64,000 nt of DNA, taken from assembly GCA_965645245.1 (NCBI GenBank), contig OZ287082.1, forward strand, positions 1,364,001-1,428,000. Direction: 5' to 3'. Position numbers and translations under genes: made by a program. Positions 23,601-60,132 of the stretch are shown here, piece by piece. A model generated the notes under the pieces. That model made no database searches. It had not been told where the DNA came from and saw only the letters and a program-made list of their open reading frames with translations. Numbering within the stretch: the stretch's first letter is position 1; every line of letters starts with the position of its first letter. The DNA is from Massalongia carnosa (lineage: Eukaryota).

Positions 23601-25887
23601 GCTGACTGATCCATGCTTCTAGGGCTTTTCCTATTGATGTTTCTTGCCCCGTGCGAATCGTGGTTACCATTGAATTAATGGAAATGCCAGCTCTATCGCA
23701 TTGATTGATCAAGCTTTTGAAGATGGGCAATAGGGTCTTTTCCTTATGATCATTCAATGGATAAACCCATACATATGAGGTAAATTCGTCCGTAAAATGA
23801 GCTATACAGCTCGTTCCATCGAACCCCTTATCATTGATGGTTAGGTCAAAATGAAGCACCTGATATGGCTTGATGGCACGCCCTGACGGAGCTTTATTGA
23901 TGACTCTATGCATTTTGGAGACTGCACACGTTTCGCATTGAATGGTCCTAGGTGCGTTTTCACCCCCTACGCCTTTTGAAACTGTCACCTCATCGATCTT
24001 CTTTAGCTGGTCAATCACCTCTGGCCGGCAATGACCGAGGCGAAGATGCCATTTCCATGGAGTTGCTTTTGACGTATCGCGTGGCTGCACTGAGTTAGCA
24101 AACCCTATATCTATGGATTCAGGGTTATATTCTATGATTGAGAGCCCATAGTGCTCCTTTATTTCACATATTTGTTGCCCTGTCTCCTTAACTATAAGGG
24201 TATCAGTGAACATATCCCAGAAAAAGCCTCGTTTTTTCAACTTATTGGCCGAAACCAACGTCACTGATGAATCAGGAATATAAGCTGTTCCTTCGAATAA
24301 TAGCTCCCTTTTCTGGCCATTCAATAGGCCATTTACCCTCATTGTGCCATGACCATGGATTTTCATCTCCCCGTCGGGGGTGTCCACCCACATGTCTGAC
24401 GAAGTTGGGGTTATCTCTCCTATAAACCGTGATTTATCATAGGTCAGAGGGTTATCGCATCCAGAGTCAAAGATGACGCTTTTATGCAAGGGGTTATTTG
24501 CCCTAGATGTAACGTTCGCAAACGAGAAGGATTGACTAGGCAATTCAATGTGATTGCCCTGATTATGTTGATATTTCTCTGCTTTTTGAGAGCTCTTTTT
24601 GACTGACTCCTCAGTTATTCCATCTAGTATGTTGGTGTCGGTGACCTTCTTAATGGCCATGAAAAACCGAATGTTTGACTGAATTTTCTGACGTATTTCA
24701 TTGCGTACGGTTTTATCTTCCTTCCATGCAGGGGGGCGAGCTGATTTGACGATATATGGGCATAGCCTGAACAGGTGTATTTTCCCACATACGCACTTTC
24801 TATCCTTGAATCTGGCCTCTTTTGATTGGCCATTCCATTGACTTGATTGGCTAGGCCCCGGACCTTTATTTTCGTCCTGCATTTGCCCCTGCAGCGAGGC
24901 TGCATTAGCTTGATTTCTAGACGTTGCTTGTGCCTCATTCAGGAATGATTCCACGGCTAAACGATATTCCCTGGTTGTCTCGTAAAATTCAACCGTCGTC
25001 TTAGCAGCCCTATGCTGCATTACCCAGTTTTCACAGAAATTGGGCGCCCATTTCTTCCCTGATTGGAGAAATTCATTGATGAATATGGTCTCGGAGCCAA
25101 ATAGGCCCGTTACATTGAGCTCAACAATTTGTCCCTTAATATTCTCCCAATCAGCTACCCATGCCTCTATTTTACCTTTAATGGGCGGGGTTTTTAGGGC
25201 TAGAAATTGCTCATGCAATTGCTCTATGACTTGGTCATCTGACCGCTTATATCTTGCAGCCAGAATTTTTCACTATTTCTCTAACCGATGAAGCCATCTT
25301 ATTGGGGGGGATGTATGCTCGTGCGGAGCTCTTTAGTGCATTGTCCACTATTCTGAGTCCTTGGGCGACCTTCTCCACCTGTTTTTCCTTCATCTTATAG
25401 GCTGATATCTCCATTTTATAGTCCTCCTTTTGCTCAGCCGATAAATCGCCGTATTTCTCAGCCGATTTCGTGGCTATTACAACTCCACCTTCTATAATGG
25501 GGTAAGCAATTCCACCTGCTGGCTGTGCTTGAATAGGGACTTGATATTGTGAAACTTCCGGATATTCTCCCTCTTCGGGCTCCGGTTTTGAACCATTGGG
25601 GTCCACATATTGCCATACCTTCGCTTTCTTGGATATTCCTTGTAATTCCCTAATCCATAGATGATAATTCTTGGGAGTTAGGGCGATCATCGTTGCTTTG
25701 TTGGTCTCCTCCATTTTGATCGTTTGGTTGGATCGTTTTGGGAAGAGGGTTTTATTCAACTAGATCAATGAGTAGGAATTGAAGCTTCTATGCTCTCCGG
25801 GCTCATAACTATCAAGCTGTATGGGCTAATGTGGAATATGGGTGAAAAGGAGTGGTGTGTATTGATCTATGGGAGGTCTAGGCTAGC
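20657..25887 (-). mobile_element. Near-intact Ty1/Copia retrotransposon
   Basis: 3' LTR at 20657-20810 with a G-rich PPT beside it. 5' LTR remnant 25810-25887 is identical to the 3' LTR over its length. PBS GTTATGAGCCC at 25799-25809. gag-pol runs 25759-20908. Confidence 0.95.
20908..25759 (-). CDS. Copia gag-pol polyprotein (PR-IN-RT-RH) with one frameshift at ~25265
   Basis: IFDSGC (protease), WHLRLGH..CETC (zinc motif), TPEQNGVSER (integrase), FYVDD (RT), ADASYA..STTEAE (RNase H). Gag ORF 25247-25759 is out of frame at an A-run. Confidence 0.9.
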
Positions 25888-47899: not shown

Positions 47900-50885
47900 A
47901 GATAGATTTCTTCTTCATGCTTAGTCACTTAGGTAGCTGACTACTATTCGTCTTCCCTGGATAGTGGTTCTTACATTCTGCACCTCCTCGCTATTATCAG
48001 TTGTATCAGGCTCCTCTACCTCTTGTTTATCCTCCTGACCGGTAGAAAGCTTCCAATCGCCTACCGTTATGCCTGGTATATCTTTAACTGACAGCTCATC
48101 ATCCTCCGACCCGTCTACAGCAAGAGACAATCCCAACTTTCGAAAGGTTTGACAAATCAAAGAAGATTGCTCCAAGTGCATTTCCCTCCACGCTTGTCCC
48201 ACCCATTTTGTTAGCATAGTTCGTCGATCACCCACCGTGTATGAGCTTTATTCCATTTCTCGAAGTGCTCATCGTAATGAATGTCGGCTAGCTCCGATAT
48301 TCGATTCTTCAAAGATATATTAATGGCGACGTCTAGAACTTGATTAAACCCGGTGCAGCCGGAAGGAATAAATGATGCTGTGACGTTTAATACTTTAAAG
48401 GCTTGTTTAACCTAAAATTTGTTAGCAAATATGAGCAGCTTAAAAACAAAATGCTCAGTTATTTACCTCTTCGGTTTTTTTTCCCGCAAACACATCTAAT
48501 GACAGAAAACGCCGTGTATTAGCGTTATGAAGTTCCAGAGTAGAGTATTTATACTGCTGTTTTAGCCATCAACACATGACTTTTCCATTGCAGTAGGCCT
48601 TTGGATCCCATTGAACTACTACTCCCGAGTCGTACTGCGTCATCTCCTTCTTGATTCGACTGCATTTTGTGCTATCTTGGCCTTTAAATATGAGAAGAGG
48701 TTTGCATCGATTAATGCCGTCAGCAGAAACATAAATCATCAAAGTGGCTTGTCTTTTGTCCCATCCAGACCGATGGGTTTTAATCCATACAGTTTTGGCA
48801 CCTTTAAAATCGTAGCATTAACCCTGCAGGAACTCGTAAGCAATAGGAGTCTGATCCATATTGCCGACATCGCAAAGACGAAAGAATTTGAACTCGGCAT
48901 ACTCAGTCATTCTTCCGGATGCCTTAGTCACTCGATGAGGATATAATTGACCATACACCCGACGACCCTGACGAACAAACCAACATTTATTGATTTTACG
49001 TCCAGTGTTACGGGCTTCCATGAATAATTCCAAAAGTCGCCTTTCAAGCTAAGGCTCTTTACATACACCCATAGCTTTGCTCTCTTTTCGTTTACCTTTA
49101 GGTTGAGCGGCGATTCTCGAACTACTTTCAATCCACTTTCTAAGCATCCACGCGGGTGACAAAATAAATTGCAACGTGTAAGCGAATTTACCCCTGAATG
49201 CCCCATCAAAACACACTCCTTTTTTCAACTTTTTATCTCATTATCAATGTCTCGACCCAAAAAGCCTCATTATGATACTCCCACAAAGGCCAAAGTTCAA
49301 GGAGCTTATCAATTTCTCATCTCACATGCAATTCCATTCGATCCACGGGCCATTTTTCAGGAATTTGGCGTGGCCGAGCGCGCGGGCTATAACATCATCA
49401 AAAGCGGAGCTTCTTCTCGCACACGTCACAATTCTTCTCTCGTTGAGACTCGGGGTCGAAAGCGAAAGATTAGTGATGATCAGCTGAAGGAGGCAGATCA
49501 CATTCTGCAGGATCAAGATCTACAATTGGAAGGAAAACGCTACACATGGGATGCTTTAGCACAGGAGATTGGGGCCGACGTGATGGGACGTACAATGAAG
49601 AGAACTCTTACAGCTGCCTTGAATTATCACAAATGTCTAGCCTGTGTCAAAGGGTGGCTGGCAGTGGCATCAGAAGAAAGAAGAGAAGAATTGCTACAGT
49701 TATGTTAAATAAATATCCTCGGTCCGAAGACTGGCATCGCGTACGATTCAGCGATGAGATTCATTTTGGCTACGGGCCTGAAGGACAGTTACGAATCATT
49801 CGTAAGCCCGGAACAAGATATCGTTGGGATTGTATTCAGCATCGTGATGCACCACCTGAGAAAGATCGTAAAAGAAAGCACTGCTGGGCAGCAGTTGGTT
49901 ACAATTTCAAGTCGGATATCTACTTCTACGATGTGCCCAGCAATAGCAATGGAAAAATGACTCATCAGGTGTATATTGACGCTATTCTTGATCCCGTTGT
50001 CAAGCCCTGGTTGGAGCGTGGAGATGACTTCGTACTTGAAGAAGATGGAGACTCTGGTCATGGCACGGGCAAGACACGAAACGCGGTCAAAAAGTGGAAG
50101 TTAGATCACGATTTAGAGCACTATTTCAATTGTGCTTCATCTCCTGATCTAGCCTCCATTGAAAATTGCTGGCAGCCCGCAAAGCAGCATGTTCGTAAAT
50201 TTCCTCATTGGGACGATGCAAGTTTGGAGCAGCTGATTAGGGAGGGATGGGCTCGAGTCAGTCAGGAATTTATCAATGAAAGGGTGTTATCCATGCCCAA
50301 AAGATTGAAAGAGGTAAAAGATGCAAAGGGGGCGATGACTGGTTATTGATCTCATGTAATTTAGATGAATTTTATCAGCTATGCAGATGATGGTTTATGA
50401 TGAGATGAAAATTTGAATAAAAAAGGGGGGGTAAATTCGCTTACACGTTGCAATTTATTTTGTCACCCGCGTGGCATCGTGGTAGTAATTCCAAGATTGT
50501 TGGCTGCAGCATATTTACTGATAAGCTTCATACTTCCATCCTTCTGAGACTTCCAGGTAGTTTGAGCATAGCTAATAGCAGCTAGCTTCTGCTCTCTGGT
50601 GTAGGATACTCGATGTCGAGGAGCATCATATTCGTCGTCAGAAATATCGCGAAGTGTAGGATGATCGGCCACCTCTCGATGCAGACGAAATTGTTTAATG
50701 ATAGAAGCATTATCATTGGAAAAACCGGGCATGCTAGGAATTGAAGGCTGCATAAACGCTTTCTTGGGAAGTCGGGCTGAATACAAGCTGCGAAGACTGG
50801 TGGACTTTGAATTAGGCCCAGGACGAGGCTGGTTTTGAGCCTGCATAGGATTCTGGACGTGCGAGGGAGCCATGAAATAAAGCAA
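47900..50885 (-). mobile_element. pogo/CENP-B(Tc5)-type transposase remnant that hosts a CAC-terminus element
   Basis: HTH SYTREQKLAAISY..NLGITTTM|LRKWI, then LERRLLELFMEAR, NMDQTPI, IPSGCTGFNQVLDV and RRTMLTKWVGQAW. Element ends not defined. Confidence 0.8.
49149..50473 (+). mobile_element. Tc1/IS630-type element (DD38E) with perfect 46-bp TIRs, CAC termini and 5-bp TSD GCATC
   Basis: TIR CACGCGGGTGACAAAATAAATTGCAACGTGTAAGCGAATTTACCCC. GCATC at 49144-49148 and 50474-50478. Transposase 49247-50349 with one frameshift at ~49690. Confidence 0.93.
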
Positions 50886-50934
50886 TGAAAAGATGATAAA
50901 GGTGGATAAAATGATGAAGGGATACGTAACTGGG

Positions 50935-52278
50935 CACGCGGGTGAAAAAAAAAGGGCAAGGTGAGCCGAAACTCCCCCACCAAAACTCCCCCCTTTTCTT
51001 CCCCTTTTTCTTCCCCATCTTCTTCCTCATTCAACATTTCAAATGCCATCCCACTACGATACACCCCAAAAGGCCAAGGTGCAGGGAGCTTATGAATTTC
51101 TTCTTGCAAAAGGCATTTCCATCGATCCTCGAGAGATTTTTCAGCATTTTGGCATTCGAAGCGAGAGACAGGGCTATAAAATCATTCGAAACGGAGCATT
51201 TTCTAGAAGAAGACATCATTCAACGCTCGTTGAGACACGCGGTCGCAAATCAAAAGTCACGGAAGCACAAATACAGGAGGCAGATCACATTCTACAAGCT
51301 TAGGGGCTACAGTTGGAAGGAAAACGATACACATGGGAACAATTGGCTATGGAGATTGGGGCCGACGTTGTCGGTCGTACAATGCACAATGTTATGTCGG
51401 CTGCTCTAAACTATGAGAAATGTCTGGCCTGCGTCAAGGGATGGCTGGCCGACCCACCTATGGAAAGACAGGTCGAATTTGCTCACATGATGCTAACCAG
51501 ATATCCCACACCGGAGCAATGGGATCGCGTACGATTTAGTGATGAGATTCATTTTGGATATGGGCTGGAAGGACAGTTACGAATAATTCGTCAGCCCGGA
51601 ACACGATATCGTTGGGATTGCATACAGCATCGTGACCCGCCTCCTGAGAAAGATCGAAAACGAAAACATTGCTGGGCTGCAATTGGCTACAATTTCAAGT
51701 CGGATATTATCTTTTATGACGTGCCGGGCAACAGCAATGGTAAAATGACTCATCATGTGTATATTGAATCCGTTCTTGGCCCCGTCGTCAAGCCCTGGCT
51801 GGAGCGTGGGGATGACTTCGTACTTGAAGAAGATGGAGACTCTGGTCATGGCAGGAGCAAGACAAGAAATGCCGTCAAGAAATGGAAGGAAGATCATCAT
51901 TTAGAGCATTATTTCAATTGTGCCTCATCACCTGATTTGTCCCCTATAGAAAATTGCTGGCAGCCGGCGAAGCAGCATGTTCGAAAGTATCCTCATTGGG
52001 ACGATGTCAGCTTGAAGCAGCTGATTAGGGATGGATGGGAACGGGTGACGCAGGAATTCATCAATGAAAGAGTTCGATCAATGCCCAAACGATTGGAAGA
52101 GGTAATTAGGGCTGAGGGGGCGATGACTGGCTATTGAATAGAATGTATGTAGAATTTCAATGGTCATACTAATTGAAATGTTGAATGGGGAAGAAGATGG
52201 GGAAGAAAAAAGGGAAGAAAAGGGTAAGTTTTGGTGGGGGAATTTCGGCTCACCTTGCCCTTTTTTTTCACCCGCGTG
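50935..52278 (+). mobile_element. Related Tc1/IS630-type element (DD38E) with ~105-bp TIRs and CAC termini
   Basis: TIR CACGCGGGTGAAAAAAAA(A)GGGCAAGGTGAGCCGAAA... Transposase 51043-52137 is in one frame with a single TAG at 51301; motifs FSDEIHF, EEDGDSGH and SPDLSPIEN. Confidence 0.93.
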
Positions 52279-52599
52279 GCAACGTAACTGATACATCTAG
52301 ATGCCTTTTTTTCTATCATACGTGCATCTTCACCTGTCAAATGTAGCAATGTGGCCCGCTTAATTAGTAAGTTCGATGGCCCTATCTATTTGGAGTAAAT
52401 GCTTCCGTAGATCATTAGGGCTCGACATGTTTTTTTCTATTGGCCTTCGAAACCACCATCAACGATGGCGGTTTCGATACAAGAAACAATCGTAATTCAA
52501 AAATTCATACACGAGTACGACGGTCGGTGAAGGGGATACTATTCACATACCGCATGTACAGCATGTGCATTGTTGTGTTTGAAGGTTGATAACCCTCAT

Positions 52600-55066: not shown

Positions 55067-56764
55067 TGTCACGGTTCAACCACATCCACCCATGGCCAAT
55101 CAAAGGAAAGTACGGCATCTGCTGGCGCACTAACCGCTTCCGTTACTCAACCCTTTTAGCAATCATAGGGGCAATCAACGGAGGTCTGAAAAGACTGAAA
55201 GGGACGCATCAGAACGACCTTGTAAAGCAAACACAAGGACAAAGGGCAGAAAGACTGTTTGACCAAAATGTTCACTTATTGATAAAGTCACAAGCAGCTG
55301 GATTGGGCCAAGCGATTATCTATATAGACTCCTAGAGAGGGCACCTTTTGTTTGTTTCCTTTCTGCATCTTTGATATTTTCTAGTGCATACAGTCCCGTG
55401 CCAAAAGTCTGCGGCCCAACCCGTAATTTTCGTGATTTCGCGTTTTCAACTCATCAACCCCCCATCTTCCACCTCATCACTTCGCCATGCTTCGTGCTTC
55501 TTTGACCCCCATAAGTGGTAATCGGCCTCGTAACACTGAATTGACGCCATATCAACGTGGTATGATTGTTGGGGCCCAGGCGTTGGGGCACACACCGACC
55601 GAGATTGGGATGACTCTTAATTTCACTAAATCGACCGTGCAGAGCACCATTCAGAAGCACTCAATTCGCAACGACGGCGTGTCTAAATCACGTTCTGGAC
55701 GGCCTGAAGTGCTGTCAGAACGCGATCGACTTTATATCATCAAGCATGCACGAATCAATCCACGATTCACTTATGCACAAATCAAACTAGAAGTGGGGCT
55801 CGGCTGCAGTCGTACGACTATTTATCGGGCACTCAAACTGTATGGTTTAACCAACTGGGTGGCTAAAAAACGACCTTTATTGACGCCTGAGGTGGCCAAG
55901 AAACGATTGGATTGGTGCTTGCTGCGGCGTGAGTGGACTTTTGAGCAGTGGTCAAGAGTTATATGGTCAGATGAGTGCTCGGTGGAAAAGGGGTCAGGAA
56001 AACAGCGTCAGTGGGTGTTCAGATTGCCGAAAGAAAAATGGAATAAAGAGATGATACAAGCTGTCCCCAAAGGCAAAGGAGTCAGTGTCATGGTCTGGGC
56101 AGCTTTTTGGGGAGATGACAGGTCAGATCTTTACAAATTGGCTCGTGATTTTGCTGCGAAGAAGATGGAGTACTCGGCGAACTCATATATGGAATTATTG
56201 AACGATAATCTGCTTGGAATTTGGCAACCGGGCCTCATTTTCTTGCAGGATAACGCACTATACATAAGGCTAAAAAGGTGATGGAATGATTCAATGAGAA
56301 CGGCATAGAGGTCATCGATTGGCCCCCCTATTCACCTGATTTAAATCCCATCGAGCACGTTTGGTATGTGCTCAAAAAGCTCGTCTATCAAGTCAACCCG
56401 AACATAGATTTGGTGATCGGTAGTGATGAAACTGTTCGTGAGGTACTTTGGAAAGCGTTAGAAGAAGCCTGGACGTTGATAGATGTGAAAATGATGAGGA
56501 GGTTAATAGAGAGCATGAATAGGAGGATAAAAGCGTGTATAGCGTCGGAAGGATGGTATACTAAATATTAAAAATCAATTTTTGGGGGAATTCTTGTTTA
56601 GTATGTATGTAATCATTATGTAAAGTTTCAAGACATTTCAGCAATCGTGACGTGGTTGATTGTCGATTGAATAGAATGATTGAAATGTTGGTGGGGTGCG
56701 GGGCCGCAGACTTTTGGCCTAGTACTGTAGCTTCCTAGTAGATAGTCAATTCCACATCCTGGTT
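55067..56764. mobile_element. LTR of the 46206 family (inverted), split by a Tc1 insertion: 55067-55390 + 56730-56764
   Basis: Matches the reverse complement of 46206-46586 on both sides of the Tc1 element. The last ~11 bp are missing. Confidence 0.85.
55391..56727 (+). mobile_element. Canonical Tc1/impala-like transposon with TA TSD
   Basis: TA|CAGT...ACTG|TA and ~27-bp TIR (GCCAAAAGTCTGCGGCCC core). Transposase 55487-56571 has WSDECS, QDNA and WPPYSPDLNPIE, with a frameshift and a stop at ~56260-56290. Confidence 0.93.
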
Positions 56765-56921
56765 ATTAGCGTATGCAAAATGATTTGCAATTTCGCTTAT
56801 GAAAACACATACCACCAACATGACCCCACCATTCAAACTCCAAAATCTCAATTTTCCTAGATATTCCCTATACCAAAATCCTATATAATTTGGTAGACAC
56901 ATATATATATTAATCGTCAAT

Positions 56922-57964
56922 ATGGTCGAATCCCTTCCTCCATCCATGCGATCGCGAATCATTCGATATTTATTCCTTCATTGGCGCCCGGATGCCATAG
57001 CCAAAGAGGCTCATTGCAGTGTCCGAACTATCTATAATTTCCAAGAGAATTTATTCATGTATGGTAGCATATCCGCTCCTCGAAGACGTCATCTAGGTCG
57101 CGCATGCAAAATTACTAAAGCCGCCGGCGACTCCTTGATCGAATATCTAAATCGTCAGCCATGGGCCCAACAAAAGGAGATGGTCTGGTTTCTTTGGGAG
57201 GAGTGGGGTATATTCGTGCATCAATCAACCGTTTCTAGGGAAATAAAGAAACGGCGATGGAGTCAAAAGAAAAGTCAAAGACATGGGCGTAGGAACGACG
57301 AATTGAGGGAAAATTGGCATGCTAGCATGCTTAATGTGACTGCAGAGCAGTTGGTTTTCGTTGATGAAACAGCATTCAATGAGATGACCGGTTGGAGGAT
57401 GAGGGCATACGCACCAATTGGCCAACCGGCTCGATACCAGGGGGACATTAGGAAGGGTCATAATTGGACCGTTCTTCCTGCATATACTGTTGATGGCTAT
57501 CTGCCATGTACGAGCATTCGGGAGGGGTGGTTTAATGCAGATGGTTTCTTTCAATGGATAACCGACGAATTACTTCCATATTGCACCCCTTATCCAGGCC
57601 CCGAAGCGTTATAGTCATGGATAATGCCGCTATCCATTGCAACCCACGCATTGAGGAGGCCATTCGTGGACACGGTTGCGAAGTACGATATCTGCCCCCC
57701 TATTCACCGGATTTCAATCCAATCGAGTTGAGTTTTAGTGTATTAAAGGCTTGGTTTAGAACCCATTATACCTCAATTCGCTCTGAATTTGAGAGCACCT
57801 TCGGCGATTTAATTCGATATGCCATCGACAGGAGCCATTATAACCGTTTCGCTAAAGAGCACTTTCGTCATAGTGGTGGGGGTGGGGGGTATATATTCGA
57901 GGCCGACATCATTAAATTGGAAAGGGAGCTATATGGGGGTGAGGTGCAAATAGATTTTGATTGA
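56922..57964 (+). pseudogene. IS630/Tc1-like transposase (one frameshift at ~57600)
   Basis: LVFVDET, VIVMDNAAIH and YLPPYSPDFNPIE (DD34E-type), with an N-terminal HTH. Confidence 0.88.
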
Positions 57965-58401: not shown

Positions 58402-60132
58402 CTATGGCACATCCCCCTCATCAACTCCATGTCGCCATTGCGGTTTGAATGTACGGAGATCAGTTCTGAATTCTCGTGCCCATCCATCAGGTATGCCCAG
58501 TTGAATAGCCCGTTTATATATATGTGAGCTCGTTTCTGACATATCTCTCAAATCCTCCAAAGACCACATCTCGTTTTGAACAATCTCCTTAATCCCATTC
58601 CATCTATCCTTGGCTCTTTGACTCTGCAATGCCTCCCCTTTCCAATTGAGGAAATCCTCTATAGCAAACTCATCATCCTCGGGGTTCTCGGGGTTGCATA
58701 TGGGGCTTGACCTAGTCAACGGTTTCGAGCGAGGCCTTGGTGCCGCAGGGGGTGGGGGGATGATGGGTTCGGGGACCGAAGAAGATGATGGTTGAGAATA
58801 AACAGGAAGGGGAGGGGGGCGACGAACATTACTCATTCTTTCACCCATTCTTTCCATTTGGTCCATCATCGATTCCTGCATACGCATTTCTATCGATTGC
58901 TTTGTGAATTGCATTTTTTCACCTATGAAGCTTTTCGTCTCATCGCGATCTTTTCTGGAATCCTCCCGTCCTTCCTGTATTCTCGTCTTCCTAGAGTTGA
59001 GACCCACCGGCCCCTGTAGTAGTATGAACCTATACAATGTTGGTGGTGGATTATCTAGGGAAGCACTGATGTCGCCGCGAGCGAGAGCCTTAGCCCAATC
59101 TCTTTGCAATGTATGAGAAAGATCATAATGAAGCCCATCTTCATCAATGAAACAGAAGTTATTTTGATTCGTACATCGAGCATCGTGACAAACCCATCGA
59201 TTCACCAATTGTCTATCAAAATCACCTGCATTAATAAGGATCTCACCTTGATCTCGTTGACGTTCTAATAGTTGATGAGTTCTAGTCCTTCGGCCGGTAG
59301 GTGTAGTAATAATAGTAGATGATTCAGTTGCATCTAGTAATATGTCAGGGGGATTTGATTGCTTCGGTTCTTCCATCGAAATTTCGATCTTAATAGTGAT
59401 ATCTGGCTTCCATTTACGAGATTCATCATCAATGACAGTTAGAACCTTTTCCCATTCAGTCTCAGTATAATTATCAATGGTTTGATGGACATTCCTGGCC
59501 CGACTATGAATGGCCTTAATAATGACGACGATGGAGGTCGTCGTCCATCCTTTAGTATGCCCGTTCCTTTTCTCAATCTCAGTCTCCAATGTCTGTTCGA
59601 AATCCCATATACTGAAAGCGCTTCGTTTTTTAGAACCTAGCGATGAGGTCCATATAACTCTACCATTGACACGAAGTCAAGCATGAACGGTCAACATAGG
59701 ATCTGATACTAGATCTTCGGCCTCATCTTCCTCAATGTCCGATGTAGTCAATTTGTCTAATTCTTTATTAACCTCTATTTCTTCCAGTCGTCGTCGTCGG
59801 GCTTCCGGTTCCCCGAATTGATTGACCTCCGCTTCCCATTCTTCATCCTCCCTATCTCGTCTCGCTCTTGCTCGCGCGGCGGCCTCCTTGCTTCTCTCCA
59901 AATGTGCACGCCATAACACACGTTCCGCCTTCCCCTCGCGAGTATTGCCGGGAATCCTGGGCGTTTTCATGGTGAATACCGGTGTATGGTCGTCACGCGC
60001 ACTCGGGCGGCGTGGAACCGGGGGGGGGGGTCTAAGCAACGGTCTAGTCATCGCCCCAGTCATCCCATCGATAGGTCGCATCGCTTCCTGCCTATGGTAT
60101 ACGTAACAGCGTGTTCTTTAAACGCGAGGCAT
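58402..60132 (-). pseudogene. Hypothetical protein gene (~577 codons, two in-frame stops) with a C-x4-C-x6-C-x7-H putative zinc motif
   Basis: ORFs 59677-60081 and 58402-59589 share a frame across one TGA. Upstream ATG at ~60132 is followed by a TAA. Motif RWVCHDARCTNQNNFCFIDEDGLHY. Confidence 0.55.

Follow-up and report, generated by a model that had tools for sequence, protein, structure and literature searches.

Tc1-descended transposons of ascomycete fungi that very probably duplicate 5 bp of target sequence instead of TA

Classification schemes and annotation software use duplication of a TA dinucleotide at the target to recognise members of the IS630/Tc1/mariner superfamily, ordinary Tc1 elements start with CAG, and Intruder belongs to the TA-type families of Tc1/mariner. 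In recent surveys, in the portions available, TA is treated as general for the superfamily. According to the available parts of the respective reports, Intruder is an animal DD38E family akin to the Tc1 family (PMC7731502), Sagan is a divergent fungal group of Mariner/Tc1/IS630 that duplicates TA and has a long stretch inserted between its second catalytic aspartate and the glutamate (PMC3164196), and Transib has 5-bp duplications and CAC ends (PMC1131882). In this work, we analysed a stretch of 64,000 nucleotides from Massalongia carnosa (assembly GCA_965645245.1, contig OZ287082.1, positions 1,364,001 to 1,428,000 of the forward strand; hereafter the window), in which a 1325-bp element at window positions 49149-50473 (copy 1) carries a Tc1-like transposase gene and has GCATC directly outside either end. 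The clade to which it belongs is part of the Tc1 branch of IS630/Tc1/mariner by descent, and stands outside the superfamily by the hallmark of TA duplication.

Copy 1 is bounded by perfect terminal inverted repeats (TIRs) of 46 bp with first bases CACGCGGG / CACGCGGGTGACAAAATAAA. The left TIR, starting CACGCGGGTGACAAAATAAA, lies at 49149-49194 on the plus strand and the right TIR at 50428-50473 on the minus strand, with the two copies of the target-site duplication, GCATC, at 49144-49148 and 50474-50478. Both the complementarity and the flank letters bear out a preliminary description of this locus, which had reported perfect 46-bp TIRs with GCATC on both sides. A repeat finder returned arms of 47 bases (49148-49194 and 50428-50474, 100% complementary) that include a chance flanking C/G pair; the position of the end was set by two further copies in the window (copies 2 and 3) and by other relatives, in which the base before the terminus varies. 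If the additional pair is counted as part of the element, the real duplication would be 3 bp (CAT) and the ends CCAC...GTGG. The 47 complementary bases suit this parse, written AAGCAT/CCAC...GTGG/CATCG (slashes mark the borders between target and element or duplication), and it agrees with the 1330-bp joint at the unoccupied site, where five positions are ambiguous. We consider it very improbable, because no single base always precedes the conserved first C: before CACGCGG there is a G at the left end of copy 2 and in copy 3, and the relatives differ from one another at this position.

The host of copy 1 is a degenerate repeat on the minus strand that is multi-copy in public contigs. It extends to the left of the insertion over 47921-49143, with a provisional low-coordinate limit, and between copies 1 and 2 over 50479-50934, where it comprises N-terminal coding sequence and the 5' region, as judged from open reading frames (ORFs), contigs and the restored frame. 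When 49149-50478 is left out, the minus strand of the host forms a single open frame containing NLGITTTMLRKWIESSSRI / ...KYAAANNLGITTTMLRKWIESSSRIAAQPKGK..., which agrees with the earlier claim that removal of the element together with one GCATC restores the host frame. The fragmented host ORFs gave only a DDE_1 match with an E value of 0.018, below the Pfam cut-off; from this match and a resemblance of motifs we take the repeat to be a degenerate pogo/Fot1-like element.

Contigs of three public runs show the unoccupied site; X2 and X5 are labelled organism A, and X3, from a different study, is labelled organism B. In these contigs, 49143 is joined to 50474 and 1330 bases are absent, with five letters at the joint fitting either side. 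A contig of 414 bp from X3 has 220 and 194 bases on its two sides, and in two X5 contigs ...AAGCATC passes directly into GTGGTAGTAATTCCA. Since the unoccupied host repeat has GCATC only once, and 1330 equals 1325 plus 5, the insertion of copy 1 made a true 5-bp duplication. Contig depths were not taken as copy numbers, and the unpaired flanks of other copies in public contigs were not usable for duplication counts.

The transposase gene of copy 1 (49247-50349, plus strand) is spread over two frames, 49247-49708 and 49480-50349, and matches Pfam DDE_3 with an E value of 1.6e-9; it is the only ORF-bearing feature in the 1.3-kb element. It opens with MSRPKKPHYDTP..., changes frame, continues with the motifs FSDE, EEDGDSGH and SPDLASIE, and ends in ...GAMTGY. 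The frameshift, near 49690, is a 1-base deletion, and contigs of all four public runs compared, a set without X1, X4 and X7, have an extra T there. The uninterrupted form is protein P0004 (367 aa), from a 90%-identity cluster with 43 member sequences. Copy 1 is a recently inserted cut-and-paste DNA transposon that is now frameshifted, and because the uninterrupted form exists we regard it as young but no longer functional, in a family with intact members. A contig of 5428 bases from run X6 (labelled organism C) holds a copy that differs by 8 letters and 4 gaps over 1273 bases (window 49148-50420). This X6 copy has a different left flank, diverges before the right repeat and has a depth of 2.1; it could reflect close kinship, contamination or horizontal transfer.

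We then surveyed relatives of copy 1 in metagenome contigs rather than source-genome copies of CACGCGGG...CCCGCGTG. A scan with an alignment of 15 proteins matched 577 stretches; relatives are encoded in 239 of these, of which we retained the best 80 (40-63% identity). TIRs were detected by a script that aligned the upstream region to the reverse complement of the downstream region, with a required score of at least 44. Six of the 80 loci had too little flank, and among the 74 left a usable TIR was found in 49 and not in 25. From the 49, whose TIR alignments span 22-117 nt, we removed nine repeats of the same insertion (L006, L007, L009, L063, L039, L040, L034, L038 and L057) and also L033, in which the left end is the contig start, leaving 39 distinct insertions with both flanks present. 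The control consisted of 1482 mismatched pairs, in which the left flank of one locus was set against the right flank of another.

With the raw algorithmic ends, flush identical 5-mers flank 13 of the 39 insertions and 6 of the 1482 control pairs, and flush repeats of 4, 6, 7, 8 and 9 bases were each found in 0/39. For the curated ends, 11 loci were moved to the conserved terminus where the local alignment had ended too early or entered the flank; flush 5-mers then flank 21/39 (control 4/1482), with none at 4 bases, one at 6 (L056) and one at 7 (L046). The binomial tails are about 1e-22 for the raw ends and 1e-43 for the curated ends, and TA on both sides occurs in none of the 39 relatives. Flush 3-mers at the curated ends stay at the control level (4/39 vs 33/1482), and the 5-mers of the 21 insertions are flush with the conserved C, both of which count against a 3-bp duplication with CCAC ends. 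We discarded a scan in which both ends were shifted symmetrically to find the longest flush repeat, as inward shifts into the palindromic CGCG of the terminus gave artefactual 4-mers and inflated its control, and the fixed-end tests given here replaced it.

Near-identical elements at different sites are flanked by different 5-mers: CCAGC in L053 and ACAAG in L054, CCTGC in L001 and ACCCC in L005, CCATC in L047 and CGAGT in L055. Therefore, the repeats derive from the target and not from the element. A maximum-likelihood tree was built from 32 rows, namely 24 loci and 8 named or window-type proteins, after 15 loci with more than two stops had been dropped. Duplication-bearing elements are placed on both sides of its midpoint root and in most supported groups, one of them as sister to a Pyrenophora protein (100/99) and another as sister to the window's two types (100/100). 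Taken together, we put the probability that the family makes 5-bp duplications, as a trait of the clade and not TA, at roughly 0.86. The proposal of a Tc1-fold lineage with changed target geometry, made in the preliminary description, is upheld by the empty site and by the counts of 21/39 for 5-bp duplications and 0/39 for TA.

The target is non-random as well. We reconstructed 22 empty sites (21 loci and copy 1) and oriented them by the transposase gene; these sites represent many families and, as several of them are situated in CCTA-rich sequence, are not fully independent. To the left of the duplication, position -3 is C or T in 16/22 and position -2 is A in 17/22. Within the duplication, position 1 is C in 16/22, position 2 is C in 15/22, position 3 is A or T in 19/22 and position 5 is A in 0/22, and to its right position +1 is C in 12/22, +2 is T in 16/22 and +3 is A in 14/22. 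Single-position P values range from 2e-3 to 9e-7, and those of A at -2, T at +2 and C at duplication positions 1 and 2 are each between 1e-5 and 1e-6. The consensus is YAN/CCWRB/CTA, in which A at -2 and T at +2 mirror each other around the duplication and the CC at its first two positions is unmirrored. Copy 1 (TAA/GCATC/GTG) and the surviving end of copy 3 in sense orientation (CTAGC/CTA) fit this motif. The flanks of L016, L023, L036, L042 and L048 are rich in CCTA/TAGG, as in AGGTAGGTAGG and CCTACCTACCTA, which may point to a preference of the element, in the genomes concerned, for a certain simple repeat or for another family of repeats.

Flush repeats might in principle arise otherwise, by chance, by microhomology capture of excised DNA at breaks, or through a preference for tandem 5-mers already present at the site. 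The offset or longer repeats in L010, L014, L025, L046, L056 and L075 would accord with such an origin, as would an odd 9-bp repeat, ACGTAACTG, that is offset from the ends of copy 2. However, break capture would yield variable lengths, and the length is exactly 5 in 21/39, never 4 and longer in only two, against 0.3% in the control (P about 1e-43); moreover, the empty host repeat has a single GCATC. We give this explanation hardly any weight and retain duplication of 5 bp of target by the element itself.

Several observations nonetheless weigh against 5-bp duplication as a property of the whole clade. A clean duplication is absent from 18 of the 39 relatives. Eleven of these (L002, L017, L019, L022, L030, L031, L043, L058, L068, L076 and L079) have unrelated flanks, five (L010, L013, L014, L025 and L075) have a 5-mer displaced by 1-7 bases or with one mismatch, and in two the flush repeat is longer, 6 bp in L056 (GCCGCC) and 7 bp in L046 (CCCAGGT). 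Imprecise ends, old footprints or junction filler may account for the displaced 5-mers, and in the L046 and L056 subfamilies either the length of the duplication or the position of the true ends may be different. In the set with 19 perfect pairs, the differences between left and right 5-mers are bimodal (0 in 19, 2 in one and 3-5 in 19), which would fit chimeric contigs or recombination joining the flanks of different copies, not slow decay; metagenome contigs can be chimeric across repeats. Besides, the 25 of 74 loci with enough flank that gave no usable TIR stand outside the counts, and 11 ends were curated by eye, although the uncurated test is decisive nonetheless. At the host site, the window's own sample is possibly among the empty-site runs, the runs are not all independent, and X3 is labelled differently. 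The stagger is deduced from duplications and not from observed transposition, and the structural cause proposed below draws on one sequence alignment and a monomer model. Finally, copy 2 has no target-site duplication (CTGGG vs GCAAC). The preliminary description had named as refuting the case that most other copies lack 5-bp duplications; this does not apply, as 21 of 39 relatives have one, although copy 2 shows that not all copies do. Among the individual loci, L025 reads GACCC and then CA before its left end, the ends of L046 (662-2030) and L056 (1597-2975) are of the CAAGGCC and CTCCATC type, and L058 and L068, family mates of L046, show no flush repeat.

Copy 2 lies at 50935-52278 on the plus strand and has the same ends (CACGCGGGTG) as copy 1, whose first ten bases it shares and to which it is 78.6% identical across about 1090 bp. 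Its ORF (51043-52137) contains a TAG stop at 51301; contigs have other letters at 51299 and 51301, and the intact relative P0001 reads through this TAG. The left flank, TAA/CTGGG, and the right flank, GCAAC/GTA..., both fit the target motif. After 50934, other copies of the host repeat read ATACC... in contigs of three runs, which would supply the T at +2 and the A at +3 that the motif predicts. The right junction is not host repeat but a different sequence of lower depth, the depth falling after about 52340, and the 30-letter host continuation known from the contigs occurs nowhere in the 64-kb window. The 9-bp direct repeat ACGTAACTG lies around copy 2 (50920-50934 and 52279-52300), separated from the element by two bases, GG, on its left side and by three, GCA, on its right. 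It is plausible that copy 2 joins the left and right junctions of two insertions that lay a few bases apart in related repeats.

We next turned to the transposase. The residues D170, D267 and E306 of P0004 are at least 90% conserved in 71 homologues, and 38 residues separate D267 from E306 (DD38E). Copies 1 and 2 and P0004 exceed the Pfam DDE_3 cut-off of 28.6 bits, with 38-41 bits. A profile of 15 homologues searched against the PDB gave one match, the catalytic domain of Sleeping Beauty (SB) SB100X, with an E value of 5.9e-18. In the profile alignment, DGDSGH of the clade stands opposite DNDPKH of SB and SPDLSPIENCW opposite SPDLNPIENLW, with a four-residue insertion immediately behind DGDSGH relative to SB. 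An AlphaFold model of the monomer was built on 71 homologues and has a mean predicted local distance difference test (pLDDT) score of 84. The top Foldseek matches of this model were Mos1 transpososome chains (4u7b, 5hoo and 3hos) and SB (5cr4), with E values of about 1e-11; the SB catalytic domain reached a template modelling (TM) score of 0.74, and the best fold matches have 27-28% identity. Retroviral integrases matched at 1e-4 or weaker, seven orders of magnitude below Mos1 and SB. Residues 11-125 of the model are helical and Mos1 aligns over its full length. HTH_Tnp_Tc3_2 scored 25.4 and 21.7 bits in relatives, below its cut-off of 31.5; it is precomputed for many homologues, and P0004 gave no match to it. 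Descent of the transposase from the Tc1 branch of IS630/Tc1/mariner follows from its match to DDE_3, from SB as its sole PDB sequence hit, and from Mos1 and SB as its best fold matches. The assignment in the preliminary description as Tc1/IS630-like with DD38E, based on FSDE, EEDGDSGH and SPDLxxIE, is therefore sound.

Compared with Tc1, impala and SB, the clade has the same size of about 1.3 kb with a single ORF, TIRs that start C-A/T-N and, after a few more bases, have an A-rich stretch, a helical N-terminal region, a DDE_3 catalytic domain and the motif SPDL(x)PIE. It differs in duplicating 5 bp of variable sequence instead of TA, in having DD38E instead of DD34E, and in having DGDSGHG plus four residues where SB has DNDPKH. 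With Intruder it shares the DD38E spacing and the kinship to Tc1; this likeness is by description only, and the shared spacing may be convergent. Sagan is likewise fungal and a divergent branch of the same superfamily, but the clade has a spacing of 38 residues and a duplication of 5 bp, which rule out identity with Sagan, with its TA and long insertion.

Transib and RAG1 resemble the clade in the 5-bp duplication and in the CAC at the ends of most clade members. The clade ends, however, are not fixed as CAC: they read CAC in most members and in all three window copies, and otherwise CTC, CAA or CTT/CAT, so that only C followed by A or T is constant, which is also the case in ordinary Tc1 elements such as the one at 55391, which begins CAGTCC. 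The clade protein is Tc1-type and not RAG1-core-like, and no RAG or Transib chain was found among the PDB sequence matches or the listed fold matches. Identity with Transib is ruled out by the DDE_3/Tc1-like protein, and the parallel that the preliminary description had drawn between the CAC ends and Transib/RAG proves superficial. One could still suppose that an unrelated Transib-like transposase moves the elements in trans and that the Tc1-like ORF is a passenger or relic, as the 5-bp duplications and CAC ends recall what the available part of the Transib report describes (PMC1131882). We regard this as the least probable of the alternatives. Every full-length relative carries a Tc1-like ORF between its TIRs, the 1.3-kb element has no other ORF, the ends (CAC, CTC, CAA) diverge together with the transposase across the tree, and the catalytic triad is conserved in 71 homologues.

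Homologous proteins fall into 343 clusters, some of them from Pyrenophora, Botrytis, Clathrospora and Bimuria, and the named homologues (these four genera and Rutstroemia) are all Ascomycota. The clade is widespread in ascomycete fungi. In a collection of bacterial and archaeal genomes there were 105 pattern matches, and in viral contigs 14, none of which was confirmed as a relative.

In DDE transposition, the length of the duplication equals the stagger between the two strand-transfer points, and HIV-1 integrase makes 5-bp duplications. By this rule, a 5-bp duplication means that the paired active sites would attack phosphates 5 bp apart instead of 2. We suggest that the clade transposase joins its ends to the target with a 5-bp stagger, which would leave flanking 5-bp duplications rather than TA, and that its dimer, compared with canonical Tc1/mariner enzymes, may place its two active sites at a greater distance from each other along the target. 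The cause might sit in the segment just behind the second catalytic aspartate, DGDSGHG with its four-residue insertion. In this segment, D267, D269, S270, H272 and G273 reach a conservation of at least 90% across the 71 homologues, as does G271 in the 15-sequence alignment, and a serine and a glycine of the clade stand opposite P247 and K248 of SB, followed by the four extra residues; in the model, residues 267-279 form a coil of lower confidence. As the available part of one SB study states, H187, P247 and K248 lie near the target DNA in a model, mutants of these residues change target choice, and P247 superposes on S119 of HIV-1 integrase (PMC8934666). A change of K248 uncouples excision from integration, according to the available part of another (PMC6943129). 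The motif keeps YA and TA one base outside each cut, as if the subunits retained a TA-type half-site contact. That the whole Tc1-descended ascomycete clade has gone from a stagger of 2 to one of 5 bp and has swapped TA for the 11-bp asymmetric motif YAN/CCWRB/CTA seems to us slightly better than an even bet.

In the full-text literature searched, no paper describes 5-bp duplications for a Tc1/mariner lineage, Repbase and Dfam lying outside this search. The available parts of reports on yeast Tc1 (PMC9977792) and on S. nodorum repeats (PMC3017866) are silent on 5-bp duplications. The family and its duplication may already be catalogued, for example under a fungal 'Mariner/Tc1' entry in Repbase or Dfam. 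The family is abundant in sequenced Ascomycota, with the 343 clusters mentioned above, and curated libraries very likely hold a consensus. In addition, the Zymoseptoria element DTT_Birute, a Tc1-Mariner with CTCGTG-type ends, is on record, its duplication read as TA by the authors in the available part of the report (PMC7174668); it may or may not belong to the 5-bp clade. Against prior cataloguing stand the literature result, the general treatment of TA in the available portions of recent surveys, and the statement, in the available part of its report, that the divergent fungal group Sagan has TA (PMC3164196). We consider prior cataloguing unlikely, though a good deal less so than the alternatives weighed above.

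If undescribed, the clade would provide a naturally occurring test of the determinants of duplication length in DDE transposases. Strand-transfer spacing has so far been approached mainly by comparing unrelated superfamilies; here one fold, at about 27% identity to SB, would offer a comparison pair for the residues that fix this spacing, and would direct a test to one particular segment, the Gly-rich stretch DSGHG(x)4 that stands in place of DPKH of SB. Intact members such as P0004 make a functional test feasible. If the proposed switch is true, the clade would also be a source of compact Tc1-type vectors free of TA, and tools that seek TA would mis-bound or mis-classify its members.

The window contains further elements. 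Copy 3, at 25887 to about 26495 on the minus strand, is a truncated and more divergent relative that retains a single end (CACGCGGGGG) and, of the transposase, the C-terminal half; it has 69% identity to copy 1 over 467 bp. An ordinary Tc1/impala-type element lies at 55389-56729 on the plus strand, reading TA/CAGTCCCG...TACTG/TA with CAGT... ends, and its TA on both sides confirms the use of the Tc1 at 55391 as an internal control in the preliminary description. It has 29-bp imperfect TIRs, an HTH_Tnp_Tc3_2 match of 58 bits and a frameshifted DDE_3 transposase with 23-28% identity to the 5-bp family. Directly after it, a DDE_3 transposase gene of a third kind occupies 56889-57964 in two overlapping frames, with the motifs VFVDETAFN ... 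VMDNAAIHC ... YSPDFNPIE. Near this transposon cluster, an open frame of 424 aa is present on the minus strand at 58402-59676.

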